From IMG/VR virus record IMGVR_UViG_3300020570_000507, positions 1-28,613 of that record: 28,613 bases of DNA, one strand, 5' to 3'. The first letter of the stretch is position 1. Each line of letters starts with the position of its first letter. Both the position numbers and the translations under genes were made by a program. Source of the DNA: a virus. Its lineage: Duplodnaviria; Caudoviricetes. The notes beneath the pieces were generated by a model that saw only the letters and a program-made list of their open reading frames with translations, did no database searches and was not told the origin of the DNA. Shown one piece after another: positions 6,675-23,813 of this stretch.

Positions 6675-7037
6675 TTAAAGCAACTTCAAATGGCCAGTAA
6701 TGTCTTGAAGTTCTTCTTTTGTTGCCGGACCAATGGCACAACATGTAAGTGTTGGAACGCCATTAAATTCGGTTAATCCAGAGTCTTCAATAAGAGCGCA
6801 AATTTTGCCGGTTTGATAGGCTTTCTCATAGACTTCCAATAACTCTTCCTTAGAGTCCACCGACACACAAATTTTGGTAAAGTCTCCACTCAACCATTGT
6901 TTAACTCTATAGTCTATTTGGTTTTCAATGGTAGCTTTAAGAGAAGCATGACATGCCTGGGCAATCATTTTACCTTTGCGCATATTCAAGTCCTTGCGAA
7001 TTACAAGGACTTGTTGTAATTTGGATTGTTCAGTCAT
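6675..7037 (-). CDS. pth2: peptidyl-tRNA hydrolase, Pth2 (archaeal/eukaryal-type) family
   Basis: QVLVIRKDLNMRKGKMIAQACHAS, KICV, IEDSGLTE, TCCAIGP, ITGHLKLL. Confidence 0.93.
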   Translation of the reverse strand: MTEQSKLQQVLVIRKDLNMRKGKMIAQACHASLKATIENQIDYRVKQWLSGDFTKICVSVDSKEELLEVYEKAYQTGKICALIEDSGLTEFNGVPTLTCCAIGPATKEELQDITGHLKLL

Positions 7038-7052
7038 TAGATTTCCCCATTT

Positions 7053-7271
7053 CTAACAATAAGCAACTCTAATAATCTCAAGACCTGGATATTGTTTTTT
7101 AGCAATATCCTCTGCTTCTTGATGATTGCACTTTTCATTAACACCATGTTCAACCTTGACATAAACATAGATTTCTTTACCCGTTGAGAAACGAACCTGG
7201 TATTGTTCATTAAAATACTGTTCACGGTCTCGTTTTCTTTTTATTATTGTCTGATGTTTTTTGCTAATCAT
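7053..7271 (-). CDS. hypothetical protein
   Basis: 72-aa ORF coupled (ATGA) to the upstream gene. Confidence 0.6.
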   Translation of the reverse strand: MISKKHQTIIKRKRDREQYFNEQYQVRFSTGKEIYVYVKVEHGVNEKCNHQEAEDIAKKQYPGLEIIRVAYC

Positions 7272-7465
7272 TTGATGAGTTCAATAATACAGTCATCAAT
7301 CATAGAATTGGTCATATGGAGTTCACCATTTGGAGTGTCAAAACGAGCAACTTCAAATTTATGCAGTTGTTCTAAAAAATTACTGAGTTCTTTGTATCTT
7401 TTCTCGTCATATGGAACTTCGTTCCCTTCAAACTTTCCATACTTGGAATGAATAATCAGTTTCAT
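7268..7465 (-). CDS. hypothetical protein
   Basis: 65-aa ORF with a GGAG RBS, first gene after an early promoter. Confidence 0.7.
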   Translation of the reverse strand: MKLIIHSKYGKFEGNEVPYDEKRYKELSNFLEQLHKFEVARFDTPNGELHMTNSMIDDCIIELIK

Positions 7466-7490
7466 CGGGCTTCTCCGTGTTTATGGAAAT

Positions 7491-7534
7491 ATAATAACAT
7501 GAAAACCGTTTACGGCGAAAGTTGTGTGCCAGTT
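7491..7534 (-). promoter_or_regulatory. early promoter motif copy
   Basis: AACTGGCACAC-27 nt-TATTAT. Confidence 0.7.
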
Positions 7535-7548
7535 TTAGATGCGAACAT

Positions 7549-8388
7549 TCAAATTAATGTTAAATCTATACCGTGAGTGTCATACCACCATTCTGCGGTT
7601 TTATCCGGGTGCTTATCTTTAATTTTTAAATACCTTGAAATTATTTTACTCTGCCGTTCAATTTCATCAGTAAAAAATTTATGATCAATGGTTTCTCCAC
7701 TTTTATGGAGCTGGCGTAGTAATTTACGCAAAATATATTCTTGTTTTCGATTTCCAGGAGTATAACCAGCTTCTATTATTTTATAAATGGCTCCCTTTAG
7801 AGTTTCTGTTGCGCTTTTCACTGGATTGCCTAGAATACTTTCAATTCTCTCCAAACCAAACCCAACATCAATAAATTGACCAGAAGTATTAACGATGTTA
7901 CCAATCTCAATTCCATTTTTATAAAATTCAGTGCAATAACCTCCAAGATCACCATCACTCCATACACATTCTGAATCGTATCTAATTTCTAGGTCAGGAT
8001 AATCTGAATAAAAACATTTCCAAGAATCATATTTATCTGGATGTATAGTCACATAATCAATTGAAATATCTAATATGTCATTAAAAAATCCCATCCAAAA
8101 ATGGATAGTTTGCTGCATGGTCATTTCACCAAAAGAAAAAAGACCCAACATATTAAAATATAATAAGTGAGAGCCATCTCCAATTTCAACTAAATCTTGT
8201 AGGCGAATGCAAGATTGACTATTAGCGACAGTGGTATTGTCTGGATTTTTAAACTTGTTTTTAAACTGCTGCATTCCTGCTGGACAAAATAACGTAGTCT
8301 CATCATAAGACTTTACATTATCATCTACCTTAAAGAAAATATTATTACTTTCACAATAACTTTTATAGAGTTCAATTACTTTGTTCAT
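7549..8388 (-). CDS. alaS: minimal alanyl-tRNA synthetase (catalytic domain only)
   Basis: TLFCPAGMQQFK, SQSCIR..D..EIGDGSHLLYFNMLGLFSFG, EIGNIV, IDVGFGLERI, YILRKLLR; 279 aa, no editing or C-Ala domain. Confidence 0.88.
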   Translation of the reverse strand: MNKVIELYKSYCESNNIFFKVDDNVKSYDETTLFCPAGMQQFKNKFKNPDNTTVANSQSCIRLQDLVEIGDGSHLLYFNMLGLFSFGEMTMQQTIHFWMGFFNDILDISIDYVTIHPDKYDSWKCFYSDYPDLEIRYDSECVWSDGDLGGYCTEFYKNGIEIGNIVNTSGQFIDVGFGLERIESILGNPVKSATETLKGAIYKIIEAGYTPGNRKQEYILRKLLRQLHKSGETIDHKFFTDEIERQSKIISRYLKIKDKHPDKTAEWWYDTHGIDLTLI

Positions 8389-8391
8389 TTT

Positions 8392-8610
8392 TTAAGAAAT
8401 CACGAGAACACTAAGGTTAACTCTAGAAAAAGACCAATAATCGTTGTGTTTGTCTGTGAGGTATTCGGTATCTAGATCACGCGAAACAAGATCAGCCGGA
8501 AAAACGGAAGCGGTTTCTAATTCTAAATCTAAACATGGCTCAAAATATGTCCCCGCGCCACACACAACCTTCATATCTGCTGGGAGTTCTTTTAATTCTT
8601 TAACTGTCAT
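8392..8610 (-). CDS. hypothetical protein
   Basis: Likely start MTVKELKELP at 8610 (GGAGG upstream, ATGA overlap). Confidence 0.65.
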   Translation of the reverse strand: MTVKELKELPADMKVVCGAGTYFEPCLDLELETASVFPADLVSRDLDTEYLTDKHNDYWSFSRVNLSVLVIS

Positions 8611-9185
8611 TTTGCCTCCAACCATTTTTCTAATTTTGGATAATTCGTAAATTGAATATCTACAATGTCGAGACAGATATTATAGCTCCCGACAGACCTT
8701 GGAAGATATGTTCCGTCTGAAGTATAATCATTAGAAAACAAGATAGTTTCATCGTGATGCCCACCATAAGAATCGTCAGATTTAGATTCTACTGAAGAGT
8801 ATTGAAAACTAAACGAACCCACCTTAGGATTATAGTAAATTACACCTGTTTTTGTGCCACCATCGCGAAATCTGACCATTATTCTTTGATTTAAAAAGTC
8901 TTTAAGATCAAATTTTGGTTTAGGGTTCTCTAAGATTTTTCCAACTCTTTGATACTCCACATTATTAATCATAATAAAGTCGTCTTCAATTGGATGTGGT
9001 AGCGTAATTTTGGCCATTTTAGATTTCTCTACGGGTTGGCCCGCATTATCATAACGATCAAGAATATCCTCAATGCGCTTCTTTGTTGCAGGACCAAAAT
9101 AAACCACATTTCCTGGATGTTCATCTATAGAACGTCGTATATGTCTAAGAACATTTGCAAGTTCTTCTGAGATTTCGTCTGACAT
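8607..9185 (-). CDS. hypothetical modular protein
   Basis: 192 aa; C-terminal half resembles the N-terminus of the 9187-9690 product. Confidence 0.7.
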   Translation of the reverse strand: MSDEISEELANVLRHIRRSIDEHPGNVVYFGPATKKRIEDILDRYDNAGQPVEKSKMAKITLPHPIEDDFIMINNVEYQRVGKILENPKPKFDLKDFLNQRIMVRFRDGGTKTGVIYYNPKVGSFSFQYSSVESKSDDSYGGHHDETILFSNDYTSDGTYLPRSVGSYNICLDIVDIQFTNYPKLEKWLEAK

Positions 9186-9186
9186 T

Positions 9187-9690
9187 TCAGTTCTCCATCA
9201 CTGTAATTTCTTGAGTATAACATTCTTCGCACTCAAAATTATCACGAAGACTATCAGTGTCAGAATAATACTCTACATAACCACTTTCCGTTGGCTCTTC
9301 GTCCCATTCTTCACAATGCTCAAAATAATCTTCTGGAGTGAAAATAACAGTGCGAGTGATTTTTACCGTTTTTAGTTTGGGATAGTTCTTCTCTTCTCTC
9401 TTAAGGCGATCAATCTCCTTTTGTAATTCTACAACTTGTTTTTCTAGTTGTTCGTATTTTTTCATGGGTTTAATTTCTTCAATGTGGATTATGTCTAGTT
9501 CAGGGAATCGTGGCCATTCACTGGGGCAGCCTTTTCTCGTAAAATATCTTTCTTTGACTCCAACCCAAGAAAGCTTATATGGAAAAGTATGCCGACCACC
9601 AGGAGTGAACTTAACCTCAACGTCTCTGACATCATTATTGCCGAAGGTCACTCGGACTTTCTTATCAATAAACTGTGAAAGATCAATCAT
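9187..9690 (-). CDS. hypothetical protein with central coiled coil
   Basis: 167 aa; first gene after an early promoter. Confidence 0.75.
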   Translation of the reverse strand: MIDLSQFIDKKVRVTFGNNDVRDVEVKFTPGGRHTFPYKLSWVGVKERYFTRKGCPSEWPRFPELDIIHIEEIKPMKKYEQLEKQVVELQKEIDRLKREEKNYPKLKTVKITRTVIFTPEDYFEHCEEWDEEPTESGYVEYYSDTDSLRDNFECEECYTQEITVMEN

Positions 9691-9712
9691 AGGGTTTGGG
9701 TGTATGGTTTTT

Positions 9713-9757
9713 ATTATAGGTCATTCTATGTGGCTGTGGTATTCTCGTGTGACAGTT
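9713..9757 (-). promoter_or_regulatory. early promoter motif copy
   Basis: AACTGTCACAC-28 nt-TATAAT. Confidence 0.75.
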
Positions 9758-10122
9758 CAGACTGCGGCTTCTCGTTTAAGACGCGCAACTTCAGATGGCA
9801 CATTGAGCAACCATAGTAATTTTTTGGGATCATGTAATCTATCAGACATGTATCTCAAATCGGATTCAATCTTTTCCAAACTTTTATAACCGTAAGATTC
9901 ATATGGATTGGGAATTTCATAACCCACATAAGAAATCCGTAACTTCTTTTTTTCCTCTCTACATAAACAGCGAATTACGCTAGAAACCTCAATGATGCCT
10001 CTACAAATTTCATCAAGATTAAATTCACCTTTTTCCAGGTAATTTTTAAAGACTTTGGAATATACAAGAGAATACCAGATCTGTATTTTCTCTTTAATTC
10101 TTTTCTTAGTAGACCGTTTCAT
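9757..10122 (-). CDS. hypothetical protein
   Basis: 121-aa coupled ORF. Confidence 0.65.
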   Translation of the reverse strand: MKRSTKKRIKEKIQIWYSLVYSKVFKNYLEKGEFNLDEICRGIIEVSSVIRCLCREEKKKLRISYVGYEIPNPYESYGYKSLEKIESDLRYMSDRLHDPKKLLWLLNVPSEVARLKREAAV

Positions 10123-10679
10123 AATGTGTTTTTCGTATCATTTGAATTGTTTTCTTCCCATTCAATAACGGCTTTGTGATACAAATTCACTGCATCTCTG
10201 AGGACTTCTGCTTTGCTTCGGTGCGTACGTTTGGCAAGATCGTTTACGGTAGTGACAAAACCATCTTCGGTGGGTAGATTGTTTTCATTGATCCCAAGAA
10301 CTGCCATAGCTCGGTTGACTTCATCTTCTTCTAAATCATCAGGAATCATTGCAGCAAGCCTTTTGTCATCGTCAAGGTCTGGTGGATCAGCAAACTCTCC
10401 CCGTTGAGCTTGCTCTAGACCACGCTTAACCGAAGCGAGAGCTTCTTTGTTCTTGAATAACCATGCTTCAGACGGTGGATATGGTAACAGGGACGATGGA
10501 TCTCCGGTGTAGTCACCAACAGCGGCTTTAGACGGCACGCTAAGCACGTCTGCCCGAGCATCAAGACAGTCGCAAACTACATAAAGCACAGCACAAAGAT
10601 CGCGCAGTTTTTGTACTTCTGCCAAAGCGGCGCCTCCACGACAACGGCTGGTGAATAGGAAGGCAAGTAGGCGTTTCAT
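10119..10679 (-). CDS. chimeric protein with C-terminal ribbon-helix-helix (CopG-like) domain
   Basis: VNDLAKRTHRSKAEVLRDAVNLY matches the RHH helices; GC-rich N-terminal part. Confidence 0.65.
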   Translation of the reverse strand: MKRLLAFLFTSRCRGGAALAEVQKLRDLCAVLYVVCDCLDARADVLSVPSKAAVGDYTGDPSSLLPYPPSEAWLFKNKEALASVKRGLEQAQRGEFADPPDLDDDKRLAAMIPDDLEEDEVNRAMAVLGINENNLPTEDGFVTTVNDLAKRTHRSKAEVLRDAVNLYHKAVIEWEENNSNDTKNTL

Positions 10680-10710
10680 AATCAGTTGAGTTTGTTGGAA
10701 AAGACTAGGA

Positions 10711-10899
10711 TTACTTGTTTATCAGGTAACTAAACATAAATGAGATAAAGCATACCCAAGCATTAAACGGATCGGTGAAAGCCAAATAAACGACTACTGC
10801 GGCCCATAGCACTACAAGGCCATTGGCTACAATGGCGTGAACTACTCTTTTTGGAGTGATGTAAGGATTGGATGGGTCAAAGCCAAAGAAGTTTTTCAT
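10711..10899 (-). CDS. small membrane protein
   Basis: 62 aa with two hydrophobic stretches. Confidence 0.65.
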   Translation of the reverse strand: MKNFFGFDPSNPYITPKRVVHAIVANGLVVLWAAVVVYLAFTDPFNAWVCFISFMFSYLINK

Positions 10900-11141
10900 G
10901 GTTGGGTAATATCAGTTGGAATTTCAATTAGAGCATCAAATTCCTCAGTAAGGCGGTACGGATTGCAGTTTGACATAGCATTACAACATCTACGAACGCT
11001 CTCAACAAGCGGGCCAGTTAAATTGCGGGTAAAACAATGATAGCCTAATGTTTTATATGCTAAACTGGGCTCCTGTGTGAGAAAATCCCCAAAGTGTAGG
11101 GCATGGAACAATCGCTGTTCTTTTTCTGAGTATTTAATCAT
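10896..11141 (-). CDS. hypothetical protein
   Basis: 81-aa coupled ORF. Confidence 0.65.
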   Translation of the reverse strand: MIKYSEKEQRLFHALHFGDFLTQEPSLAYKTLGYHCFTRNLTGPLVESVRRCCNAMSNCNPYRLTEEFDALIEIPTDITQP

Positions 11142-11310
11142 TATCGGATTTTTTCAATTTTAGCGGTGGTTTGCCCCTAGGTTTATTTCGGTTTTCATAA
11201 ACATGTCCACCCAACCAGAAGACTCCCGGTGCAATTTCAAGCTCTCGAGTGAATAAGAACTTTATATACTTTATCATCACCACCTTAAATGTGTAAAATA
11301 CATTCTTCAT
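11134..11310 (-). CDS. small hypothetical protein, 58 aa (not in ORF track)
   Basis: MKNVFYTFKVVMIKYIKFLFTRELEIAPGVFWLGGHVYENRNKPRGKPPLKLKKSDND. Confidence 0.55.
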   Translation of the reverse strand: MKNVFYTFKVVMIKYIKFLFTRELEIAPGVFWLGGHVYENRNKPRGKPPLKLKKSDND

Positions 11311-11329
11311 AAGTAAATACCAAGACTAT

Positions 11330-11464
11330 TTAATTGCCCGAAAGTTTGAGCATTACCGCGAAAATAAGATAGGACAGCCCGATAAGACTTGCAAGAATCC
11401 GACTTGGGCATCCTCTTGCTACCCAGATATGACCGATAATTAAAAACAATTGAAATGAAGTCAT
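11330..11464 (-). CDS. small membrane protein, 44 aa (not in ORF track)
   Basis: MTSFQLFLIIGHIWVARGCPSRILASLIGLSYLIFAVMLKLSGN; ATGA overlap. Confidence 0.6.
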   Translation of the reverse strand: MTSFQLFLIIGHIWVARGCPSRILASLIGLSYLIFAVMLKLSGN

Positions 11465-11703
11465 TTTCCCTCCAAAATGTTTAGGTGTCGTTTAATTTCG
11501 TCTCTGGCCGAGGTGAGCATCATAATTTCATCTTCAATGATTTCTAAGATCTCGCTACCGAAATAGCTTTCGTTACATTCTAAAAACTCCTTTGCTGAAA
11601 TTTTTTGATAGGACGAAAACCAAACGTCTACTGCTGAGTGGACATCATCATTCTCATTTAAATGACGGGCAATCATCTCAAGATTAGTCTTTTTGCTACT
11701 CAT
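11461..11703 (-). CDS. hypothetical protein
   Basis: 80-aa coupled ORF. Confidence 0.7.
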   Translation of the reverse strand: MSSKKTNLEMIARHLNENDDVHSAVDVWFSSYQKISAKEFLECNESYFGSEILEIIEDEIMMLTSARDEIKRHLNILEGK

Positions 11704-11993
11704 TCTTCAGGTTCAATGGAACATGGAACGCCCTTGGATTTCAGGGCATCACAATAAAACTCGGCCATTTCAATGTCACATACTTTAATAAGACCAATTC
11801 CTGTTGTGTGAGCAGTCAACATTATTTCAATTGCCTTAGTTTGTGAAAGTTGACATACTTCCATCAGGCTCATAATAACAAGTTCTGCTGCTACTCCTTC
11901 ATCATTATGAAGAAGAACTCGTTGCTTTGGCGAATGTTTTGGAGTAGTTTGACTCTCGATGACTGTTGGTGCTTCAATGGTTTGGGTGGCCAT
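11700..11993 (-). CDS. clpS: ClpS N-end-rule adaptor
   Basis: RVLLHNDE..AIEIMLTAHTTGIGLI..EMAEFY..L..SIEPEE; cyanobacterial-like. Confidence 0.9.
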   Translation of the reverse strand: MATQTIEAPTVIESQTTPKHSPKQRVLLHNDEGVAAELVIMSLMEVCQLSQTKAIEIMLTAHTTGIGLIKVCDIEMAEFYCDALKSKGVPCSIEPEE

Positions 11994-12022
11994 GGTGATT
12001 CTCTGTGTTTGAGGATGTGGAT

Positions 12023-12068
12023 AACATAGCAGGCTATGGAATGTTGCCGTCTAGATTGTGTGCCAGTT
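12023..12068 (-). promoter_or_regulatory. early promoter motif copy
   Basis: AACTGGCACAC-29 nt-TATGTT with extended TG. Confidence 0.7.
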
Positions 12069-12334
12069 TATGGATTGGTTGGCGGTGGATTTGGTTCTCG
12101 CTTTTCTAAAGTTGGTTCCAAATATTCTTTTTCTATTTTTCGCCGTTTATATAAATCATTAAGAATATCCAAATTTGCCCAATCATAAGTGGTATAGGGG
12201 CCGCCACCCATATACCACCAGAAAAATCTCATAAACTTCCGCTGCGGCCAATAATCTGTGGACCCAAATCCATTAGTCGTTTTAAGTATTCTGTAGTTTT
12301 TTAATTCGTCTTCCATTTCAGTAATAGTGTTCAA
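12068..12334 (-). CDS. hypothetical protein
   Basis: 88-aa coupled ORF. Confidence 0.7.
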   Translation of the reverse strand: MNTITEMEDELKNYRILKTTNGFGSTDYWPQRKFMRFFWWYMGGGPYTTYDWANLDILNDLYKRRKIEKEYLEPTLEKREPNPPPTNP

Positions 12335-13113
12335 TAGGTAAAGTCATTTAAAGACAATTCACATTCTGGCTCCCATTTTTCCACAACAGTCCGAATAATT
12401 GGTTCAGTTGGGCGAAACTTTTCAGGAATATCCAAATCTTCTGGATTTACCAGCCGTCGTTGTCTTCTTACAAAAGTTCCATTGGTAAAAAACTTAGGAA
12501 GATTCTCCCATGGATTTCCTTTTTCTGTTAGCATTCTCTCCATTTCCTGGCAGGTTTTATTCTGTAGAGTCTTATGCGAGAAAAAATGCCGAGCATACAT
12601 TGAAACCGAGTTTTTCTGTGCATCCCGTTGTCTCCATGAGAAGTTCAAATAAACTTGTTCAAGGTCTGGAACATTCCAAACTCTAGCATCAAAGCTAGGA
12701 AAGTAACCTACTTTTTCTGGCAAGAAATCTGGAAGTCTTCCACAAAAATAAGATGATGCAGATCCGGCTAAAATTGATGTGAGTTTTTGAAATTTTCCAC
12801 CAAACCAAAACTCTCGGTTAGAAAAGTTTTCCTTATCCAAATACCAATAGAGAGTGATTTCATCAGACTGACAATAACCTAATTGGGCTTCACTCTTGTC
12901 AACGAGAAACTTTGTTGTTTCAATCATTAGATCGACAAATCTTTCATCAAACGGGCGTTTGAGACCCTTGGTGAAAGAGCTAAAACAATTACCATCAATG
13001 CGGGCCATGAGTGGTAGAAATGGATCTGCTTTCCGGCCAGCTTCAATCTGCTCTTGTGCTTTCAATAAATCACCAAGTTTATCTTTGCTGTATTTGGGTT
13101 CGGTCATTTTCAT
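12331..13113 (-). CDS. Thg1-like protein (tRNA-His guanylyltransferase / 3'-5' polymerase family)
   Basis: ARIDGNCFSSFT, RPFD, GYCQSDEIT, FGGKFQKL, FDAR, WRQRDAQKNS. Confidence 0.92.
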   Translation of the reverse strand: MKMTEPKYSKDKLGDLLKAQEQIEAGRKADPFLPLMARIDGNCFSSFTKGLKRPFDERFVDLMIETTKFLVDKSEAQLGYCQSDEITLYWYLDKENFSNREFWFGGKFQKLTSILAGSASSYFCGRLPDFLPEKVGYFPSFDARVWNVPDLEQVYLNFSWRQRDAQKNSVSMYARHFFSHKTLQNKTCQEMERMLTEKGNPWENLPKFFTNGTFVRRQRRLVNPEDLDIPEKFRPTEPIIRTVVEKWEPECELSLNDFTY

Positions 13114-13128
13114 TTTGTTTATAAACCT

Positions 13129-13185
13129 AACATAACACCATTTTCAGTTGAACAAGATTTATTGTGCCACTTTATCAAGTGTTTC
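13129..13185 (-). promoter_or_regulatory. early promoter motif copy
   Basis: AAGTGGCACAA-27 nt-TATGTT. Confidence 0.65.
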
Positions 13186-13341
13186 ATAAAACTCATAGGC
13201 TCTTACCGTTTGAATGACTTCTTTTGTTGCGTTTGGATTCCGTTCAACTCTCCGGCGAACATAAGAATTCTCATCTCGGGCAAGAATTGTTAGAGTTTCG
13301 GGTGGTGTGTTGCGGTTTTGTGCAATATCTACGTTGTTCAT
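13159..13341 (-). CDS. minimal LRV-repeat protein (one repeat plus C-cap)
   Basis: NRNTPPETLTILARDENSYVRRRVERNPNATKEVIQTVRAYEFY. Confidence 0.75.
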   Translation of the reverse strand: MNNVDIAQNRNTPPETLTILARDENSYVRRRVERNPNATKEVIQTVRAYEFYETLDKVAQ

Positions 13342-13718
13342 AGCTCTAAATTCTCCTTATAAAACTCATAGGCTCTTACAGTTTGAATGACTTCTCGGGA
13401 TGCGTTTGGATTCCGTTCAACCGCTCTACGAACATTACAACTCTCATCTCGGGCAAGAACAATTAAAATTTCTGGAGTAGCATTAATATTACATGCAACA
13501 CACCAGCGAGTTATTGAGCACGTTACGCTAGCATGTTCCTTTAATAATTTTATGGATTTAGTCTTGTCAGCAATAACCCAAGGTGGTTCCCAACACACTC
13601 CACTCCGAGTTGATTTCATTATTCTTTCAACTTCTCTTTCAAGATTTTTCACAATATCTTTAGCTGTTGGAGATTCCCACTTATTTTCTTTAGTGTAGTC
13701 ATTTAATAAAGATTCCAT
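13338..13718 (-). CDS. LRV-repeat protein with unrelated N-terminus
   Basis: VACNINATPEILIVLARDESCNVRRAVERNPNASREVIQTVRAYEFY. Confidence 0.75.
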   Translation of the reverse strand: MESLLNDYTKENKWESPTAKDIVKNLEREVERIMKSTRSGVCWEPPWVIADKTKSIKLLKEHASVTCSITRWCVACNINATPEILIVLARDESCNVRRAVERNPNASREVIQTVRAYEFYKENLEL

Positions 13719-13801
13719 AAGTTTTCATAAAGGACTTTCTTGTATTCAATATCCATATCTTTCTGGCTTTTTATAAAATCTATTAGAGTATCTGTTACCA
13801 C
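13703..13801 (-). CDS. small hypothetical protein, 32 aa (GTG start, not in ORF track)
   Basis: MVTDTLIDFIKSQKDMDIEYKKVLYENLWNLY fills the intergenic gap. Confidence 0.5.
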   Translation of the reverse strand: MVTDTLIDFIKSQKDMDIEYKKVLYENLWNLY

Positions 13802-13804
13802 TTT

Positions 13805-16520: not shown

Positions 16521-16928
16521 TTATGTTTCCTCCAGCTTTTTCCAATCCTCATATTTTAAATATTTGCAAATTGTTCCATCTTTTAGGGTCGCTCTACCTC
16601 CACACCAGCTCACCACCGAATTTTCACTATTTTCTGTGCTGATTTCAATTGTTCCATCAGAATATTGTAAAATAGTTTTCTCTTCGTGAATCGGAATGTC
16701 TAACTCATCAGGATTTGCAATCCAACCAATAGCCCAAGCGGTAAAACCTTCATTCTCTGCTACCATCAGAAATTCATCACTATTACAAAGATAAGATGAA
16801 GATTTCTTTAACCATCCTTGAATGTATGGATGGCGCTCAAGTTCTTCCACAGTGTTGAAATAAAAATCTACGGGAGTGATACCCCTAGAATCTATAAAAT
16901 TCGGAATCCTCTGTATAAAGTGATTCAT
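16521..16928 (-). CDS. hypothetical protein
   Basis: 135-aa coupled ORF. Confidence 0.7.
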   Translation of the reverse strand: MNHFIQRIPNFIDSRGITPVDFYFNTVEELERHPYIQGWLKKSSSYLCNSDEFLMVAENEGFTAWAIGWIANPDELDIPIHEEKTILQYSDGTIEISTENSENSVVSWCGGRATLKDGTICKYLKYEDWKKLEET

Positions 16929-17110
16929 TTGAGTTTCTCCACGAGTTCATTACGATAGGCATTCCATCCTTTATCATGTTCCGAAAAAGGTTCTCGTTCT
17001 CCGGGCATCCATTCTTCAAATGCTTTCATAATATCAATAAGAATATTGGGGTCATACCGACCTCCACTCTTTTTCATATAGTAGTAAACAAAAGATTCTC
17101 GGTTGATCAT
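16925..17110 (-). CDS. hypothetical protein
   Basis: 61-aa coupled ORF. Confidence 0.65.
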   Translation of the reverse strand: MINRESFVYYYMKKSGGRYDPNILIDIMKAFEEWMPGEREPFSEHDKGWNAYRNELVEKLK

Positions 17111-17316
17111 TGAAATTTCACCAGGGCATCAATAATGTGTTGAATTCCATCTTTAGGAATATGATTGTGATTTGTTGTACCGGTCATTGCCTCCATGCCT
17201 TCCATATGAGTGATTGTAACTGTTCCATATTCATCCGCACTTAAAGTGTAGCCGAAATCATCCTTCGTGTGTATAACATTGACTTCTAATGTGGTTCTGT
17301 ACGTTTGCTGATCCAT
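17107..17316 (-). CDS. hypothetical protein
   Basis: 69-aa ORF. Confidence 0.65.
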   Translation of the reverse strand: MDQQTYRTTLEVNVIHTKDDFGYTLSADEYGTVTITHMEGMEAMTGTTNHNHIPKDGIQHIIDALVKFQ

Positions 17317-17355
17317 TTGTTTTGTTTGTTAAGTATTGGGTGTTGTGGGATATAA

Positions 17356-17676
17356 CTATCCCAAAGGCATTTCATCGGGGCCAAAGTTGGATAGAGAACT
17401 TTCAGAACCTTGCAAATCCACATCTAGGGCAGAACCTTCAAACACAAGCAATGTTTTCAGCGTGAATCTTTCAATAACGTAAGATTGTAGTGGTTTACTA
17501 ATCAACTGGGTTCCATGTTCTCCCCGCTCTTTTGCATTTTTTATGGTTTTATATTTTTGCGCCAGAGAAGGATTATCTGTAAAGCTCCAGTCATAATGTG
17601 GCTGTTTTGCAGCATAATAACCGCAGTCAAACTTTACAAAATATACGGTTTCTTCAAAAATAATTGGTTCAAACAT
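17356..17676 (-). CDS. hypothetical protein
   Basis: 106-aa ORF after an early promoter. Confidence 0.7.
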   Translation of the reverse strand: MFEPIIFEETVYFVKFDCGYYAAKQPHYDWSFTDNPSLAQKYKTIKNAKERGEHGTQLISKPLQSYVIERFTLKTLLVFEGSALDVDLQGSESSLSNFGPDEMPLG

Positions 17677-17700
17677 TGGTTTTTATTAAGGCTACACTAT

Positions 17701-17761
17701 CATACAACAAAACTGGCACAGCGGTAAAAGTGTGTGCCAGTTTCTCATGTGTCTTGCTATT
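17701..17761. repeat. 61-bp direct repeat, copy 1 (contains early promoter)
   Basis: Matches 18467-18527 with 2 mismatches; AACTGGCACAC-27-TATGAT; internal inverted repeat aaactggcaca/tgtgccagttt. Confidence 0.92.
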
Positions 17762-17778
17762 ATCGTGTTTGTTAGACG

Positions 17779-18435
17779 TTAAATTTCACTTACATTTTTT
17801 AATAATCCAATTTTTACCAATTTACCCCTTACAAGTTCAATATTGCGGCTAACATTATTAAAATCTTCGCGAGATTTCTTAACTATCCATGGAGGTGCCT
17901 TTTTTTCAAAATTTGGATTAGAAATTTTTAAAGAAAGGATGGCATATTCCTTCTCGTATTTTTTATACACTTTAACAAGGCGGTTAACACATTCTTCATA
18001 TTTTTCTTCTTGAATTTCTATATGCCAGCTATATTCCGGCGCGGTTTTCCCTAATGCCGAGTATTCAGGTAAAGTGTAAACGAATACCTCGCTTATCGTT
18101 GGTCCTAAAAGTTCGTGATATGTTTTAATTTTATTTTTACTAAGAGCTGATTTAACGAAAATAAGAATGCCAACTTTATCTTTTCCTGGGTTAAGACCTG
18201 AAAATATCCAAACTAAATACATTTTTTCAGAATCATCCTCGGGCCTAAGCTCAAAATCATATAGACCACTTTTAATAATTGGCTTTGAAAACCAACACCA
18301 TTTTTTGTTCATTCGTTTAGCTACTTCTTCACCATAGACGCATTCGTAAAATTCGGGATCGTCTTCGGAAATCACATACCCTAACCCATTCGCCCAATCT
18401 GGAGCGGTATCCCAAGATGGTTTTTCTATTTTCAT
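17779..18435 (-). CDS. hypothetical protein bracketed by direct repeats
   Basis: Likely start MKIEKPSW at 18435; the ATG at 18462 lies only 2 nt from the -10 box. Confidence 0.7.
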   Translation of the reverse strand: MKIEKPSWDTAPDWANGLGYVISEDDPEFYECVYGEEVAKRMNKKWCWFSKPIIKSGLYDFELRPEDDSEKMYLVWIFSGLNPGKDKVGILIFVKSALSKNKIKTYHELLGPTISEVFVYTLPEYSALGKTAPEYSWHIEIQEEKYEECVNRLVKVYKKYEKEYAILSLKISNPNFEKKAPPWIVKKSREDFNNVSRNIELVRGKLVKIGLLKNVSEI

Positions 18436-18466
18436 TCCTCTAACCCCCACATTATTCTTCATACAG

Positions 18467-18527
18467 CATACAACAAAACTGACACAGCGGTAAAAGTGTG
18501 TGCCAGTTTCTCATGTGTCTTGCCATT
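18467..18527. repeat. 61-bp direct repeat, copy 2 (contains early promoter)
   Basis: Matches 17701-17761; includes the 3' end of the 18511-18879 gene. Confidence 0.92.
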
Positions 18528-18879
18528 GTAAATTTTCAAGTTTACGTTTTCGGTTGGAGTAATCTTTTCTATAGAGATATTCCTGTTCTTTGGTTGCAAG
18601 TCCAACTTTCATAAGAGTATAAATTGCATCACTTTCGTTTTTTGAGAGAATATTGATTCCGCCATGTTCAGCATCTTCAAGTTCCCAGTAAAAGGCTTTC
18701 ACCTGACTTTTATGATCTTTTGCTTGCCAGGCTTTACCGTTATACTCTATGATTACATTTTTATTATTGATTAGATAGTGACCATTTCTATTAAATAATG
18801 GTTCAATTTCATCAAGGGAATATTGAAGATTGTCGTCATTTTGAATCCATAATGGACATTCAAGAACTTTAATTTTCAT
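18511..18879 (-). CDS. hypothetical protein
   Basis: 122-aa ORF. Confidence 0.7.
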   Translation of the reverse strand: MKIKVLECPLWIQNDDNLQYSLDEIEPLFNRNGHYLINNKNVIIEYNGKAWQAKDHKSQVKAFYWELEDAEHGGINILSKNESDAIYTLMKVGLATKEQEYLYRKDYSNRKRKLENLQWQDT

Positions 18880-18895
18880 TGTAAAGACACTCTAG

Positions 18896-18942
18896 TTTTT
18901 ACTCACATCAAACCAGCGTTCAAAGCTGGTTGAATTTACTAA
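18896..18942. repeat. 47-bp direct repeat (other copy 19306-19352)
   Basis: tttttactcacatcaaacca(g/a)cgttcaaa(g/a)ct(g/a)gttgaatttactaa, 3 mismatches. Confidence 0.9.
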
Positions 18943-19400
18943 TTTTTCCTGTCCCATTGCGTCTTCACATTTGTTTGCATGGTCATTCCACGTTCCGGTG
19001 AGTGGTCGGCGGATTCTTCGGGAAATACTGCAAATCTTACTTTATAAGATTGATTCATTGTAGAATCGGGTCCAGTTTGCAATTGAATGGAATATAGTAC
19101 GAGCTTGTCATATTTTTTCCTATACCGGGGAAGTGTTTCTTTTACATCATTAATAGATGAAAATAAACGGGATTTTGATTCTATCGGATATACTTTTTGA
19201 GTTTTGTCATCATAATATAAACTATTGGGCGATAGTGTAAAATAATCAAAAAGCGTAGCAATCTCTCCGGCTTGGTCTTCCGGTAGACAGCATGTATCAT
19301 TCGAATTTTTACTCACATCAAACCAACGTTCAAAACTAGTTGAATTTACTAAATTGCTTGGATGTACTGTATATTTCATTGGTTCAGGTGGTAATTGCAA
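18939..19400 (-). CDS. hypothetical protein
   Basis: 153-aa ORF (TTG start, or ATG at MKYTV). Confidence 0.6.
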   Translation of the reverse strand: MQLPPEPMKYTVHPSNLVNSTSFERWFDVSKNSNDTCCLPEDQAGEIATLFDYFTLSPNSLYYDDKTQKVYPIESKSRLFSSINDVKETLPRYRKKYDKLVLYSIQLQTGPDSTMNQSYKVRFAVFPEESADHSPERGMTMQTNVKTQWDRKN

Positions 19401-19412
19401 TTATCTCAAACA

Positions 19413-20000
19413 TCATAGAGTAAACCGAACAAATTTAGAAACTCTAATATTTTCCTTAAGAGTTCCCGCAACACTCTTTACATATTCTTCAACAGTTAGA
19501 GTATTGTCTTTAACAAAAACCTGACTCATTAGACACATCTCTTTCAGGCGTTTTGCAACTCTACCTTCAACAATTTTAGTCTTAATTGCATCGGGTTTGG
19601 CTGCAAGGTCATTTTTACCCATTTCAATTTGAGCTTCTTTCTCTGAAATTTCACTAGGAATGTCATCAACCGAAACATAAGAAACTGCAGGATATGCTGC
19701 AACCTGCATTCCCAAATTGCGAACAAGCTCTAGAAACTCTTCTGAACGAGCAACAAAATCTGTTTCACAAAGAACTTCAATCAAAACACCAACTTTACCG
19801 CCCGTGTGAATGTAAGAGCCAATAGTTCCTTCAGTTGTTTGTCTACCAGAATTGCCATCTGCAATTGAAATTCCTTTCTGTCTGAGCCAAATAATTGCCC
19901 TAGATTCATCGTCCGAATTGGCGGCTAGGGCCTCTTTACAGAGCATCATTCCGGCTCCAGTCTTTTGCCGAAGTTCTTTAATTTGTTCAATGGTTGCCAT
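19413..20000 (-). CDS. tsf: translation elongation factor Ts (short cyanobacterial type)
   Basis: [72 protein letters not shown]. Confidence 0.96.
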
Positions 20001-20028
20001 TTTCTTATTTTATAATGAAGGTAAAATT

Positions 20029-20185
20029 TGCCCTCGGAGAGATTTGAACTCACTATTGATAGACTTAATGTTTCGTTCAGGAAGATCGCCTTATGAGGGA
20101 GGTTCTTATCGGTGTGGATTCAACACACCTATCCAACACTACTTTATTAAGTTGAATCCTATCTTACCATACCAATGGCAAGGGC
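20029..20185 (-). ncRNA. 157-nt tRNA-like RNA with large structured insert
   Basis: Acceptor GCCCUUG/CGAGGGC plus discriminator A; T arm GUGAG-UUCAAAU-CUCUC; internal helices GAUAG/CUAUC, ACUUAAU/AUUAAGU and GGUGUG/CACACC. Confidence 0.7.
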
Positions 20186-20188
20186 ATT

Positions 20189-20218
20189 GAAAAGTAAGAC
20201 ATTTGGGACTGTCTTACT
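20189..20218 (-). terminator. hairpin plus short U tract (terminator or processing signal)
   Basis: AGUAAGACA-8 nt-UGUCUUACU-UUU. Confidence 0.5.
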
Positions 20219-20441
20219 ATACCGGACCCAGAAGTTCTCTTTCATACTTCTCGGTTTGACATCTTTCTGGGCTATGTGCCCAGCGATTATCAATAGTCGC
20301 CCTGGGGATCAAACCCAGCCTAAGGCCCCAGTCCAGGGCAAATCGCTTATAAGGCGACTCCGAACATCAGTTCTGACGACCGAGCGGATGAAAGGAAGTT
20401 TTTGGGTAGGCGAACCTACCTTTTCTACTTTCCCGGTATAG
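20217..20441 (-). ncRNA. about 225-nt multi-stem RNA (possibly manA RNA motif) enclosing a tRNA
   Basis: Closing helix CUAUACCGG/CCGGUAUAG; GGUAGG-UUCG-CCUACC, CUGGGC/GCCCAG and AGAAGU/ACUUCU stems. CAUCCGC, GAUGUC and GUAUGAAAG recall cyanophage manA RNAs (from memory, unverified). Confidence 0.55.
20294..20381 (-). tRNA. atypical tRNA-Ile(UAU)
   Basis: Acceptor GGUCGUC/GGCGACU+A; minimal D arm GAAC-UGAU-GUUC; 6-bp anticodon stem with loop CU-UAU-AA; long variable arm; T arm CUGGG-UUUGAUC-CCCAG; no encoded CCA. Confidence 0.78.
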
Positions 20442-20476
20442 AGCCCAGGGGGCCTATTTCCTTTCATTGCCTATGT

Positions 20477-20520
20477 ATCATACACCAAGACTGGGGTTGT
20501 GGGTGGGTTGTGTGCCAGTT
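20477..20520 (-). promoter_or_regulatory. early promoter motif copy driving the RNA cluster
   Basis: AACTGGCACAC-27 nt-TATGAT. Confidence 0.75.
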
Positions 20521-20554
20521 TAAGGGTTGGGTGCTTTTGTCAAGTGGTAGCAGA

Positions 20555-21130
20555 CTACTGTGAAAGTAGCATAGAAGATTTAAGTCTAAGTTCTGCGTGA
20601 ATTTCTCTATGACAATTAGAACATACACAAATACATTTATCCAGTTCACGTTTTTGATTTTCCCAACTCTTATGCTTTATGTTTCCAAAGTTTTTATCCT
20701 TTTCCTTTGGGTTTATATGATGGAATTCTAGAGCATCAACACATTTATTATAATCGCATCTTTCGCATTTTCCACCTTTATACTCTACAGCTTTCTTTTT
20801 AGAATTTCTCCACCTTTCTATAGATTTTTTATTAGAACATTTTTTACAGTTGGGTGCCCATACTCGTCTTCCTTTTCTCCAATAACCAGTTTCAACATTT
20901 AAATCTATATCACAGGAATTACATTTTTGTATTGGGTTACCATTATCTCTTTTTATTGTGTGTTTATTGCCATTGACATAAACCCCTTCTTTAAAAGATT
21001 TATAGTGAGTCTTTAGATTGTGTTGTTTTAACCAATATCTAATTGTGGTATAGCTTTTATTTGTTAATTTTGATATTTGCCTTATTGATAATTTTTGGTC
21101 AATAAATTCTTTTAAAGTAGAATATTCCAT
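20555..21130 (-). CDS. HNH endonuclease with N-terminal HTH (free-standing homing-endonuclease type)
   Basis: SIRQISK..SYTTIRYWL HTH; CxxC..CxxC; KGGKCERC..ALEFHH..ELDKCICVCSNCHREIH. Confidence 0.88.
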   Translation of the reverse strand: MEYSTLKEFIDQKLSIRQISKLTNKSYTTIRYWLKQHNLKTHYKSFKEGVYVNGNKHTIKRDNGNPIQKCNSCDIDLNVETGYWRKGRRVWAPNCKKCSNKKSIERWRNSKKKAVEYKGGKCERCDYNKCVDALEFHHINPKEKDKNFGNIKHKSWENQKRELDKCICVCSNCHREIHAELRLKSSMLLSQ

Positions 21131-21196
21131 TAGTTCAGGTAAAATAACTTATTGTTATTTATACAACTGAACTATTAAACTTTACAAAGTTAAAAA

Positions 21197-21279
21197 CGGG
21201 TCCCGGATGAATTGAACATCGTACCCTCCTTCCAGCGTTTAAGGGACCGCGTTAGAAGCACGGTGCTGGGACGGGACCC
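21197..21279 (-). tRNA. D-armless tRNA-Arg(UCU)-like RNA
   Basis: 8-bp acceptor GGGUCCCG/CGGGACCC+G; 4-bp T stem GAUG-UUCAAUU-CAUC; anticodon arm ACCGUG-CUUCUAA-CGCGGU; only 7 nt where the D arm should be. Confidence 0.7.
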
Positions 21280-21339
21280 ATAATAAAACCCGAAACAAAT
21301 CGGATTGTCTGTCTATTTAGACCCCCTTTGCTTGACCCT

Positions 21340-21399
21340 TTAAGAATAACACAAAACCACCTAAACGGTAAAAGCGTGTACCAGTTGTTCAAGTGTCCA
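21340..21399 (-). promoter_or_regulatory. early promoter, duplicated at 21482-21541
   Basis: TGGACAC-TTGAAC-AACTGGTACAC-27 nt-TATTCT; 60-bp imperfect direct repeat at a 142-bp offset. Confidence 0.8.
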
Positions 21400-21400
21400 C

Positions 21401-21425
21401 AAAAAAGGGGCTAGTTAGGCCCCCG
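21401..21425 (-). terminator. intrinsic terminator
   Basis: GGGGC-CUAACUA-GCCCC-UUUUUU. Confidence 0.8.
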
Positions 21426-21478
21426 CTTATGGTAAATCATGGAGGGACATGGAGCCCTATTGGGTAACAACTCCCAAC
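21401..21478 (-). ncRNA. candidate sRNA of about 78 nt
   Basis: Bounded by its own promoter (-10 at 21485-21490) and a terminator; hairpins UUGGG/CCCAA and AGGG/CCCU; CUCCAUG occurs twice. Confidence 0.55.
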
Positions 21479-21481
21479 TCA

Positions 21482-21541
21482 TTAAGAATAACACAAACTC
21501 AGCCAAACGGTAAGAACGAGTGCCAGTTGTTCAAGTGTCCA
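21482..21541 (-). promoter_or_regulatory. early promoter motif copy
   Basis: TGGACAC-TTGAAC-AACTGGCACTC-27 nt-TATTCT. Confidence 0.8.
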
Positions 21542-21544
21542 AAC

Positions 21545-22063
21545 TCAATAAGAACCTGGCTCCTGATAAACGGTAACAAAAACTGTGCCCTTCTTATAAA
21601 GAGGAAGTAGTTTATCCCGTAGATCAATGTTATAAAGTCTCACACAACCTAAAGTCTGAACCAACCTCTGTTTAGGTGCCCACGATGCCGGCCATCCATT
21701 ACTCGACCCTCCGCCATGAATCATAAGACCAGCTCTACCATATTTCGCTTCCTGGCCTTCCAATTCTACCATATCAAATGATAGCCATCCATAGGCCATT
21801 AGCGTGCGATCAAAAAATGGATTGGGGCCATACTTAGCATAGTCATTATAGAGTTCTCCTAGACGATAAAGACCGGGAACGGTGTCACTACCATAATCGG
21901 AAAACACATAATCGCTTCCTTGACCTCGTGCAAGAGCTGGTATTTCCCATAAGAGTCTACCATTAAAATCGTATGCTTTTGCGGTTTCGGTGACATCATT
22001 AACGATTATATGAGTATCTCCCCGCTTAAAGCCAAAGTCTTGTGGCCTCTTTCCTTTGGTCAT
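21545..22063 (-). CDS. L,D-transpeptidase (YkuD-like) domain protein
   Basis: DTVPGLY, LMIHGG..TLGCVRL catalytic His/Cys motif; late promoter upstream. Confidence 0.75.
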   Translation of the reverse strand: MTKGKRPQDFGFKRGDTHIIVNDVTETAKAYDFNGRLLWEIPALARGQGSDYVFSDYGSDTVPGLYRLGELYNDYAKYGPNPFFDRTLMAYGWLSFDMVELEGQEAKYGRAGLMIHGGGSSNGWPASWAPKQRLVQTLGCVRLYNIDLRDKLLPLYKKGTVFVTVYQEPGSY

Positions 22064-22086
22064 AATTATGCACCGAATAGTTATAA

Positions 22087-22413
22087 CTATTTATTTATAT
22101 GTTTACCGAAGGCTCCAATAAAATTAAGAAATCTTTTGAACCAATTATGATTCTTTTCTAGATTTTTACGTTCAACATAGTTCATGTAATTATCAATAGT
22201 TAATGGATCGGCTTTTTCTAACCATTCTAAGAATTGATAAGAATCCAAGGAATTAATATATTCTAAATCTTTCTCAAATTGTTCAAAGTAATAAGAATTC
22301 TTATTACCATACTCGTCAACAAGTTCACCCGAAAAGCGGTTGCGAGGATCTCGTTTAGAGCACTCTCTCCACAAGTCTCGTATCAATTCAATTTGTCGGT
22401 CATCATATCGCAT
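22087..22413 (-). CDS. hypothetical protein
   Basis: 108-aa ORF. Confidence 0.7.
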   Translation of the reverse strand: MRYDDRQIELIRDLWRECSKRDPRNRFSGELVDEYGNKNSYYFEQFEKDLEYINSLDSYQFLEWLEKADPLTIDNYMNYVERKNLEKNHNWFKRFLNFIGAFGKHINK

Positions 22414-22430
22414 AATTGTTCAGGTGCAAT

Positions 22431-22486
22431 AAAAAGGTCAAAGGGCTCTCATAAAGAGTAGCCCATACATAACTAAGACAATTAAT
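22431..22486. repeat. about 55-bp direct repeat with terminator-like hairpin, copy 1
   Basis: aaaaaggtcaaagggctctc..gcccatacataactaag(a/t)caattaat; other copy at 23826-23880. Confidence 0.9.
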
Positions 22487-23813
22487 CATAACTATTTAAA
22501 TCATTAACTTCTATACCTTTGTTTCTCAAGAGTTCGCGAATATTATCAGCTTTTGCATAATCACGATTAGCTCTAGCGATATTGCGCTCTTCAATCAATG
22601 AGCGAATCTCTTCACTTTTCTCCTTTTCACCGGAAGAAACCTCATAAACAAACCCCAACACCCCTGACAACTCTTGTAAGAGTTTCCAGCTATCATCACA
22701 GCTATTAGTTCTTATTAAACGAGCCAATTGAAATAATTCTCCAACGGCAACTGAAGTATTGAGATCATCATTGAGAGCCGAAATGAACCTATTTCTAATG
22801 TGCTCTAAGTCTGTGCTAAGGCTTAGAGATTCAGTGACTTCACGGTTAATTCCAAATGATAGCGCAGTATTTAAAATCTTCCACCCGTTGACTGCAGATT
22901 TCATTGCTTCCATATTAAAATCTATCGGTTTTCTGTAGTGGGCTTGCAATACAAATAACCTAATGGCCATAGGACTAATGCCAAATTCAATTAGATTTCT
23001 GATCGTGGTGAAATTTCCTAGAGATTTAGCCATCTTTTCCTCGCCAACGGTAACGAAACCATTGTGTAGCCAATAATGGGCTAATTCCTTACCGTTAGCA
23101 ATTTCAGATTGTGCTATTTCATTTTCGTGATGTGGAAAGATTAAATCCGATCCACCCAAATGAATGTCAATAGTTTCACCAAGTTCTTGACGAATCATTG
23201 CGGAGCATTCAATATGCCAGCCCGGTCTTCCCGGCCCCCAAGGAGAATCAAAACTAGGCTCATCAGAATTTACACCTTTCCAAAGAGCAAAATCAAACGG
23301 ATGATGTTTTTTTGTGTCTTCTTGGCTGCGCTGTTGTTCTAACTTGCGACCACTCAGTTTACCATATTCAGCATATTTCATAACTGAAAAATAAACATCT
23401 CCATCTATAGAATATGCAGCACCTTTATCTGTGAGAACTTGAATCATATTGCGAATTGCACCGAGGCTATTCGTCACTCTTGGCATTTTATCGGCAGGAA
23501 GTATGTTCAAGGTCTTCATATCTTCTTCGAAAGCCTGAATATTACGTTCACTAACTGCTTCTATAGAGGTTCCTTCTAATTTAGCTCTTGCTATAATTTT
23601 ATCGTCAATATCAGTAAAATTCTGAACGAACTTAACAACATATCCTTGCCACATTAGATGTCTCCTTAGAACATCCCACACAATATAGCTACGTGCATGT
23701 CCTAAATGACACAGATCATAAACAGTAACACCGCAGCAATAAATTAATACTTTACCAGGAGTTATTGGAATAAACTCTTCTTTAGTTTTAGTGATACTGT
23801 TAGTTAGGTACAT
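22482..23813 (-). CDS. cysS: cysteinyl-tRNA synthetase
   Basis: [17 protein letters not shown] (HIGH), [49 protein letters not shown] (KMSKS). Confidence 0.97.

Follow-up and report, generated by a model that had tools for sequence, protein, structure and literature searches.

Locus and fold of RNA A

The window, by which we mean the whole 28,613-nucleotide (nt) stretch analysed here (IMG/VR record IMGVR_UViG_3300020570_000507), is an AT-rich phage fragment of 28.6 kb with approximately 37% GC, and the record consists of this fragment only. Between positions 6,675 and 23,813 it carries genes for six translation-support proteins and three tRNA-like RNAs (RNA A, RNA B and RNA C), and RNA A, a rewired relative of tRNA-Arg(UCU), is our main subject. 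The window genes include nrdA/nrdB, thyX, phoH, speD and dps (identified with Pfam). Because the nearest cellular matches of the window CysRS are picocyanobacterial enzymes (58–59% identity, in the 1/64 of the collection that was scanned), the host is probably a freshwater picocyanobacterium.

ARAGORN called no tRNA in the window, Rfam gave no match at E ≤ 1 and a relaxed ARAGORN run returned noise only. The first two results agree with the initial annotation, made from the sequence alone, which had noticed no canonical tRNA-Ala, tRNA-Cys or tRNA-His in the window. That annotation had also reported three tRNA-like RNAs without coordinates, for which we have candidates at 21279–21197 (A), 20381–20294 (B) and 20185–20029 (C). 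RNA A and its immediate surroundings are as follows.

21197–21279, minus strand: RNA A, a rewired tRNA-Arg(UCU)-like gene of 83 nt, identified by fold and covariation
20555–21130, minus strand: free-standing HNH endonuclease gene directly downstream of RNA A (PHROG 2255, 3.6e-31)
21335–21399 and 21477–21541, minus strand: two copies of an intergenic promoter-like repeat upstream of RNA A (repeat family D4)

The HNH gene separates RNA A from RNAs B and C. Upstream of RNA A there is also a TAAATA hexamer (21319–21314, minus strand), which we take to be late-promoter-like; a sigma-70 scan made no call on the repeats or the hexamer.

RNA A has an 8-bp acceptor stem, a 4-bp T stem, G73 and a 6-bp anticodon hairpin, in which the loop CUUCUAA places the anticodon UCU at 21256–21254; CCA is not encoded in the window copy. 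Tested as a canonical tRNA it fails, with an 8/4 branch instead of 7/5 and with a strand at nt 11–15 that pairs beyond the anticodon arm. Only 7 nt lie between the acceptor and the anticodon stem, and five of them belong to this relocated helix, in which nt 11–15 (21269–21265) pair with nt 44–48 (21236–21232) and so enclose the anticodon hairpin. A 3-bp helix joins nt 35–37, immediately 3′ of the anticodon stem, to nt 54–56; as nt 35–37 pair beyond strand 44–48, the relocated and crossing helices therefore cross, making a pseudoknot. Behind the relocated D-stem strand stands GGA (nt 51–53), the putative equivalent of G18, G19 and A20. The folding z-score of the RNA is −3.0.

Covariation supports this fold. 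Among 12 variants, 98.7% of 312 cells were paired and 15 of the 26 pairs had changed on both sides, with all five helices included; slid controls were 26–48% paired and none of 500 shuffles did as well, a test that the relatedness of the sequences inflates. Pairing support increased over sets of 9, 10 and 12 variants, and the crossing helix, invariant in the first nine, acquired compensatory changes only with the distant members. Across 20 variants the relocated helix is paired at 5/5 positions in 19, with eight strand types, and the crossing helix at 3/3 positions in 18, as CCC/GGG, CCU/AGG, CCG/CGG, ACU/AGU or AGC/GCU. The acceptor is paired at 8/8 positions in 16 of 17 variants and the T stem at 4/4 in 15 of 17. 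The variety of pair types in the relocated and crossing helices is hard to explain by a single inherited change.

The 20 variants, drawn from viral contigs, metagenomes (one contig is labelled as marine) and cultured phages, range from cyanophage-like contigs to Escherichia phage Av-05, Acinetobacter phage KARL-1 and Vibrio phage PG07, in all three of which the site is unannotated. Records of relatives are given G or L labels here; most are fragments, and G001 is complete at 279 kb. A blastn search with the Av-05 copy matched 350 phage records, mostly near-clonal Vibrio phages (three records were checked with the RNA A model). A metagenome pattern search gave 15 matches, of which five arose by chance (L031, L033, L036, L042 and L044), and L040, identical to the window, was excluded from counts. 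A relaxed pattern, run over 24 of 64 parts, gave 119 loci, seven of which scored as RNA A (six distinct sequences, one already known), and the RNA A model found one example among 82 nrdB/Thg1 loci. In two anticodon-blind scans the true matches carried UCU in 4 of 4 and 7 of 7 cases. A search of 151 genomes from the presumed host family turned up no RNA A; the single bacterial match (L450, 27 bits) lacks the motif. These sequences show the design conserved across many unrelated phages, and it is not called by the two gene finders tried, ARAGORN and Rfam.

Canonical phage and bacterial tRNA-Arg(UCU) (RF00005) shares with RNA A the UCU in a CUUCUAA loop, G73, GGA, the T loop, a 12-bp acceptor/T branch, the genomic slot and the tRNA-array context. 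RNA A differs in being 8/4 and not 7/5, in lacking a D hairpin 5′ of the anticodon arm, in carrying the D-stem partner and GGA 3′ of that arm, in its crossing 3-bp helix and in escaping ARAGORN and Rfam. The (8/4) allo-tRNAs and (8/4) tRNA-Ser and tRNA-His of Mukai et al. (PMC5389517) resemble it in the 8-bp acceptor, 4-bp T stem, 6-bp anticodon stem and occurrence in phages. As described in the main text of that paper, whose supplementary figures of ‘irregular’ tRNAs may bear on the comparison, allo-tRNAs have a tRNA-Sec-like D hairpin with a tetraloop, a nested long V arm and diverse anticodons, whereas RNA A has neither arm and carries UCU throughout. D-armless mitochondrial tRNA-Ser also lacks a D hairpin in the usual place, but there the D arm is lost, whereas in RNA A the elements appear relocated and re-paired in a setting of bacterial-type translation (PMC7609411). 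We found no passage on pseudoknots, permutation or phages in the portion of that review of non-canonical tRNAs covered here, and no published description of the RNA A fold in the literature searched, a body that mostly leaves out subscription journals.

RNA A as a candidate arginine tRNA

RNA A has five helices in a crossing topology, occupies a slot common with canonical tRNA-Arg(UCU) and occurs amid variable gene content. We consider it probable that phages conserve it as a tRNA gene whose anticodon is UCU and in which the D-stem partner and the D-loop bases follow the anticodon arm, and that it is likely to be charged with arginine by the host synthetase and to decode AGA, the six proteins nearby forming a mix-and-match set that probably acts on ordinary tRNAs.

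The bacterial arginine identity set, as tabulated in Table 1 of PMC9976931, consists of A20, C35, U/G36 and A/G/U73, and RNA A agrees with it at C35, U36 and position 73 (G73 in 12 variants, U73 in six and A73 in two). UCU is present in 20/20 variants, as the search patterns partly required, and GGA follows the relocated strand in 20/20, as the patterns favoured, so placed that its A may come to lie in three dimensions where A20 does. CCA is encoded in 8 of the 20. The order deaminase–Arg(UCU)–Thg1 in G002 and G003 corresponds to deaminase–RNA A–Thg1 in G022, and YkuD–Arg(UCU) in G006 to YkuD–RNA A in the window; elsewhere RNA A is a member of tRNA arrays, with canonical tRNAs a few bases away (G179, G180 and G181). 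In four of five complete genomes (G179, Av-05, KARL-1 and PG07) it is the only UCU tRNA found: no Arg(UCU) of canonical spacing was detected in the complete Av-05, KARL-1 and PG07 genomes, by a search whose controls were positive in G001 and G025, or in G179.

In the mechanism that we propose, the chain would run from the acceptor 5′ strand through one D-stem strand, the anticodon hairpin, a short linker, the other D-stem strand and GGA to the T arm. In this order the strands would restore the L shape: GG would touch the T loop, and ArgRS would meet the A in the place of A20. Host RNase P and the CCA-adding enzyme would mature the RNA. The benefit would lie in supplying AGA decoding and, if RNA B acts likewise, AUA decoding to an AT-rich phage inside a GC-rich picocyanobacterium; escape from nucleases that read a normal D arm may be a further gain. 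In the 62 window open reading frames (ORFs), AGA is the commonest arginine codon (38%) and AUA makes up 17.5% of isoleucine codons, with 0 in two picocyanobacterial cysS genes. In Synechococcus WH5701, according to the portion of PMC11726456 covered here, cyanophage Syn9 is limited by Arg(UCU).

Several points weigh against this reading, in addition to the inflated shuffle tests. Conservation is partly built in, since the search patterns preferred GGA and the T loop and two of the scans also preferred the UCU loop; the anticodon and T stems of variant L399 are weak; and the host assignment comes from one gene and the host codon figure from two. The complete genome G025 has RNA A plus a canonical Arg(UCU), and because it holds both forms we reject a strict replacement of one by the other. 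G3:U70, an alanine mark, occurs in 2 of 20 variants, those of Av-05 and PG07. Charging, decoding and mature ends of RNA A were not observed, the two RNA runs consisting of low-depth contigs.

The two G3:U70 copies are rewired UCU tRNAs at L464:1496–1577 (Av-05, which also has A73) and L466:5997–6080 (PG07), and charging with alanine might therefore be possible. TRNAs with a CUA (amber-reading) anticodon were also called in two of these genomes, twice in G025 and once in KARL-1 (L465:457–531).

An acceptor for another amino acid, or a decoy for nucleases or ArgRS, would be a mimic that takes no part in translation, and we think it unlikely that RNA A is one. It would fit with the G3:U70 variants, with the canonical Arg(UCU) that accompanies RNA A in G025 and with the account in PMC5389517, as far as that source was covered, of some 8/4 allo-tRNAs and G−1 tRNAs that are charged or present yet unused in translation. 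It sits poorly with the four genomes in which RNA A is the only UCU tRNA found, with the occupation of the canonical gene’s slot and with the preservation of an acceptor/T branch of 12 bp and an anticodon loop of 7 nt.

Defence evasion, by contrast, is compatible with RNA A as a working arginine tRNA and addresses why the fold exists: the rewiring may have been selected so that host nucleases or toxins directed at tRNAs miss it. We entertain this only tentatively. Against PARIS/AriB, infection is rescued by phage tRNAs, for which the anticodon stem and D loop are the proposed points of contact (portion covered of PMC12409363), and D-loop differences from host tRNAs are found in 23 of 23 T5 tRNAs (portion covered of PMC12475279); the defence-evading phage tRNAs described in these sources differ by point changes. 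PMC11555353 and PMC11464382 appear to concern phage tRNAs of this kind as well. The recurrence of the design in unrelated phage groups and its absence from the searched genomes of the presumed host family also fit. However, no nuclease specific for tRNA-Arg(UCU) was identified in the host, in close relatives the equivalent slot still has a canonical Arg(UCU), and the anticodon loop, the usual site of cutting, is invariant and canonical. To host defences that cut tRNAs, RNA A probably looks unlike their usual targets, and it may plausibly resist nucleases.

The neighbouring endonuclease gene suggests a further explanation, in which RNA A is a passenger of homing: the HNH enzyme would cut the canonical Arg(UCU) allele when a co-infecting phage brings it, whereas the rewired one would be immune. 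In the window, as in 6 of 12 listed loci (L011, L034, L035, L037, L038 and L043, the calls in L035 and L037 having been made by eye from N-terminal sequence), an HNH-like ORF comes after RNA A. Yet these nucleases come from different families, the gene is absent from L010, L039, L041, L260 and the distant members, and conservation of the fold would be left unexplained. That tRNA clusters generally attract such nuclease genes further lowers the weight of the association, and we regard homing as very improbable.

Translation-support proteins and their co-occurrence

The initial annotation had placed Pth2, mini-AlaRS, ClpS, a Thg1-like protein, EF-Ts and CysRS within 6675–23813, and Pfam confirms all six, each on the minus strand. 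A seventh candidate, the 227-aa (amino acid) protein listed with them, was absent from that annotation and has homologues near EF-Ts in G002 and G003 (38–39%).

6675–7037, minus strand: Pth2 peptidyl-tRNA hydrolase (PF01981, 3.7e-33; PHROG 1866)
7549–8388, minus strand: mini-AlaRS, 279 aa (PF01411, 7.4e-20)
11700–11993, minus strand: ClpS adaptor, of proteolysis and not a tRNA enzyme (PF02617)
12331–13113, minus strand: Thg1-like protein of the bacterial TLP type (PF04446; PHROG 4717; best PDB match 4kgk, 1e-28)
17779–18462, minus strand: 227-aa protein with a C-terminal ValRS tRNA-binding coiled-coil domain (PF10458, 2.2e-9, above cut-off)
19413–20000, minus strand: EF-Ts (tsf), 195 aa (PF00889; TIGR00116 above cut-off)
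22482–23813, minus strand: CysRS (PF01406; TIGR00435 above cut-off)

What we take to be the catalytic motifs of the respective families are present in the four enzymes checked. EF-Ts has 11 further full-length viral loci at 60–100% identity. CysRS is a plug-in cassette between direct repeats (22431–22507 and 23826–23901): L011, whose EF-Ts is 95% identical, has no CysRS at the corresponding site, and the junction without CysRS also occurs in run X1.

The mini-AlaRS has 1,068 homologues of 153–489 aa and belongs to a large phage and metagenome family of approximately 280 aa. As read from sequence, it combines the catalytic domain with a compacted tRNA-recognition part and appears to lack both an editing and a C-Ala domain; it scores 73.5 bits against the full-length alaS model, for which the cut-off is 457. 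It aligns to solved AlaRS over the catalytic domain, over motif 3 and around N303, and class II motifs 2 and 3 are present. A D400-like residue (D/E), equated through the likeness of WYDTHG to YDTYG and not through the fold, occurs in 30/30 aligned members and an N303-like N in 18/30. The mini-AlaRS of Tupanvirus (PMC10036535, portion covered) is similar in having catalytic and tRNA-recognition parts without an editing or C-Ala domain, but is 461 aa long compared with 279 aa for the window enzyme, whose family keeps the D400-like and partly the N303-like residue. Judged by the Tupanvirus enzyme, it would take an acceptor with G3:U70 as substrate. In three other phages (L003, L004 and L006) the gene stands amid tRNA genes that include a G3:U70 tRNA-Ala(UGC). 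Directly upstream of mini-AlaRS in these phages are 88-nt tRNA-like genes with an enlarged anticodon region (L003:8567–8654, and 9338–9425 in L004 and L006), which ARAGORN calls as Ala(AGC) and which lack G3:U70. The mini-AlaRS at G001:156700–157534 is split over two reading frames near residue 101–103, by a frameshift or an assembly error.

The six genes are 6 of 40 ORFs kept in 6675–23813, with 34 others between them, and in related phages the recurring genes occupy an island bounded by a deaminase-like gene and a zinc-ribbon gene. Relatives hold one to four of the six in changing combinations, and none of the records examined, most of them fragments, has all six. The G006 record spans the whole island and carries AlaRS and Pth2 but none of RNAs A, B and C. 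Pth2 and EF-Ts occur in G005; Thg1, EF-Ts and ClpS in G003; EF-Ts with a Thg1 remnant in G002; Thg1 and CysRS in G022; EF-Ts in G004; and Thg1 in G021. The absence of Pth2 and EF-Ts from G020 was left uncounted because that record is broken where the near-identical G005 has both. The complete G001 spreads AlaRS (in its two frames), CysRS, EF-Ts and Thg1 across 105 kb, with 21 canonical tRNAs (Cys and His included, Ala absent) and no RNA A, and five records (G179–G183) have RNA A and none of the six genes.

The initial annotation had proposed a module for translation maintenance or anti-defence, in which the unusual RNAs may serve as nuclease-resistant substitutes, as decoys or as dedicated substrates. 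The co-occurrence check does not sustain a fixed module: translation-support genes do recur in one variable island, but as changing subsets scattered among other ORFs and separable from RNA A. As for the RNAs, RNA A appears to behave as a substitute tRNA; a role as dedicated substrates is at odds with window RNAs that carry none of the matching identity elements (G3:U70, U73/GCA and GUG/G−1). We regard it as highly unlikely that mini-AlaRS, CysRS, Thg1-like, Pth2 and EF-Ts are co-adapted with the three RNAs, given these missing elements, the G006 island with AlaRS and Pth2 alone, the four enzymes of G001 without RNA A, the converse state of G179–G183 and the variation in CysRS presence among near-identical phages. 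In favour of co-adaptation, all these elements share one variable island in the window, G022 has Thg1 beside RNA A, EF-Ts comes after RNA C in the three close variants, and a mini-AlaRS that binds the acceptor stem alone, as the covered portion of PMC10036535 has it, would tolerate odd tRNA bodies. The six proteins are a mix-and-match island drawn from a shared accessory gene pool, not a fixed unit, and they probably act on ordinary tRNAs.

Other genes in the window deserve mention. The deaminase-like gene (HxE...CCxxC; 24965–25414, minus strand) lies 0.7–4 kb upstream of tRNA-Arg(UCU) or RNA A in G002, G003, G005, G006, G022 and the window, and its product could be a tRNA-modifying enzyme instead of a dCMP deaminase. 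LRV (leucine-rich-repeat-variant) proteins made of 78-nt repeats are encoded at 2949–3806, 13159–13341 and 13338–13718 (minus strand), and similar genes adjoin RNA A in G022. A SegE-type GIY-YIG endonuclease (24552–24974) is the sole substantial plus-strand gene in the window.

RNA B, RNA C and wider implications

The two other RNAs and the spacer between them lie downstream of the HNH gene.

20294–20381, minus strand: RNA B, an atypical tRNA-Ile(UAU)-like cloverleaf of 88 nt with a long variable arm, from its minimum-free-energy (MFE) fold and a descriptor
20186–20293, minus strand: hairpin-rich spacer between RNA B and RNA C (z = −4.58 for 20170–20290)
20029–20185, minus strand: RNA C, 157 nt, from the consensus fold of three close variants

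RNA B is apparently an odd tRNA-Ile(UAU). Its MFE fold is a cloverleaf, the sole match to a cloverleaf descriptor in the window, and the descriptor found none in 100 resampled windows. The 4-nt D loop UGAU and the T loop UUUGAUC lack both G19 and C56, for which A19:U56 is a possible replacement; the CAU tRNA that ARAGORN calls in G005 and G020 has the same pair of loops. Of the isoleucine elements, the putative tRNA has the UAU anticodon with A73, C4:G69, C29:G41, A37 and A38, and lacks U12:A23 and G18G19. G001, G004 and L043 have Ile(UAU) tRNAs with a long arm; RNA B itself was found only in the window, in identical records and in L011, and L010 has canonical Lys, Gly and Met tRNAs at that place. 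A reading of RNA B as a 66-nt D-armless RNA (20359–20294) was dropped: there is no U33 in its ‘anticodon’ loop, and MFE folding gives the 88-nt cloverleaf. Upstream, a leader at 20382–20470 (minus strand) has a 10-bp closing helix and a UUCG hairpin and gives no Rfam match.

RNA C combines a 7-bp acceptor, A73 and a T arm with a D-like hairpin that has a tetraloop; a further helix of 6 bp encloses approximately 95 nt, and approximately 125 nt lie between the acceptor/T elements. In close variants the 3′ changes preserve acceptor pairing save for one terminal pair. The anticodon-like loop (20088–20100, minus strand) reads CAU in the window and L011 and UGU in L010, within a nearly invariant stretch, and the CAU arm resembles the anticodon arm of the CAU tRNA of G005 and G020. 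As the initial annotation had it, tsf lies downstream of the RNA cluster on the same strand, starting 28 nt after RNA C. Distant relatives of RNA C were not found: comparison of 20000–20560 with G001–G005 matched only pieces of 14–23 nt, and the 21 viral matches to an RNA C pattern comprised 18 by chance in unrelated sequence and the three known close variants.

RNA C is like transfer-messenger RNA (tmRNA) in having an acceptor, a T arm and a helix in the anticodon-stem position that encloses a larger domain. It differs in its length of 157 nt, in having C3:G70 and not G3:U70, and in going uncalled by Rfam and by ARAGORN, relaxed settings included, and on these features it does not pass as a tmRNA. 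Genuine permuted tmRNAs occur near EF-Ts in other relatives, as two-piece genes 3–4 kb downstream of phage EF-Ts (L012:14656–14966, L014:13777–14103 and L017:13173–13483) with the tag ANKIVKFERTAVAV or a variant. RNA C could be an accessory RNA that is processed, or what remains of a tRNA.

A bolder proposal, which we hold possible but would not bet on, treats RNA A as an undescribed pseudoknotted 8/4 arginine tRNA architecture that would reach the L shape by a new strand order, be translated on host ribosomes, be widespread in phages and invisible to annotation, and evade defences that read the normal D arm or the elbow. RNA B with its A19:U56-type loops, RNA C with its CAU/UGU loop switch and the 279-aa AlaRS would then be further products of the arms race.

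Should the enzyme prove active, its size would lie far below the 461 aa of the viral mini-AlaRS described in the portion covered of PMC10036535. Cultured E. coli phage Av-05 has an unannotated copy of RNA A, which can therefore be tested in a laboratory strain, and RNA A gives a sharp test of why phages carry tRNAs, whether for codon supply or for evasion of defence. If our reading is true, phage tRNA sets have been undercounted. The order of tRNA arms has been treated as fixed in bacterial translation, and a natural relocated D domain, if true, would show that shape, not strand order, is what ArgRS, EF-Tu and the ribosome read.

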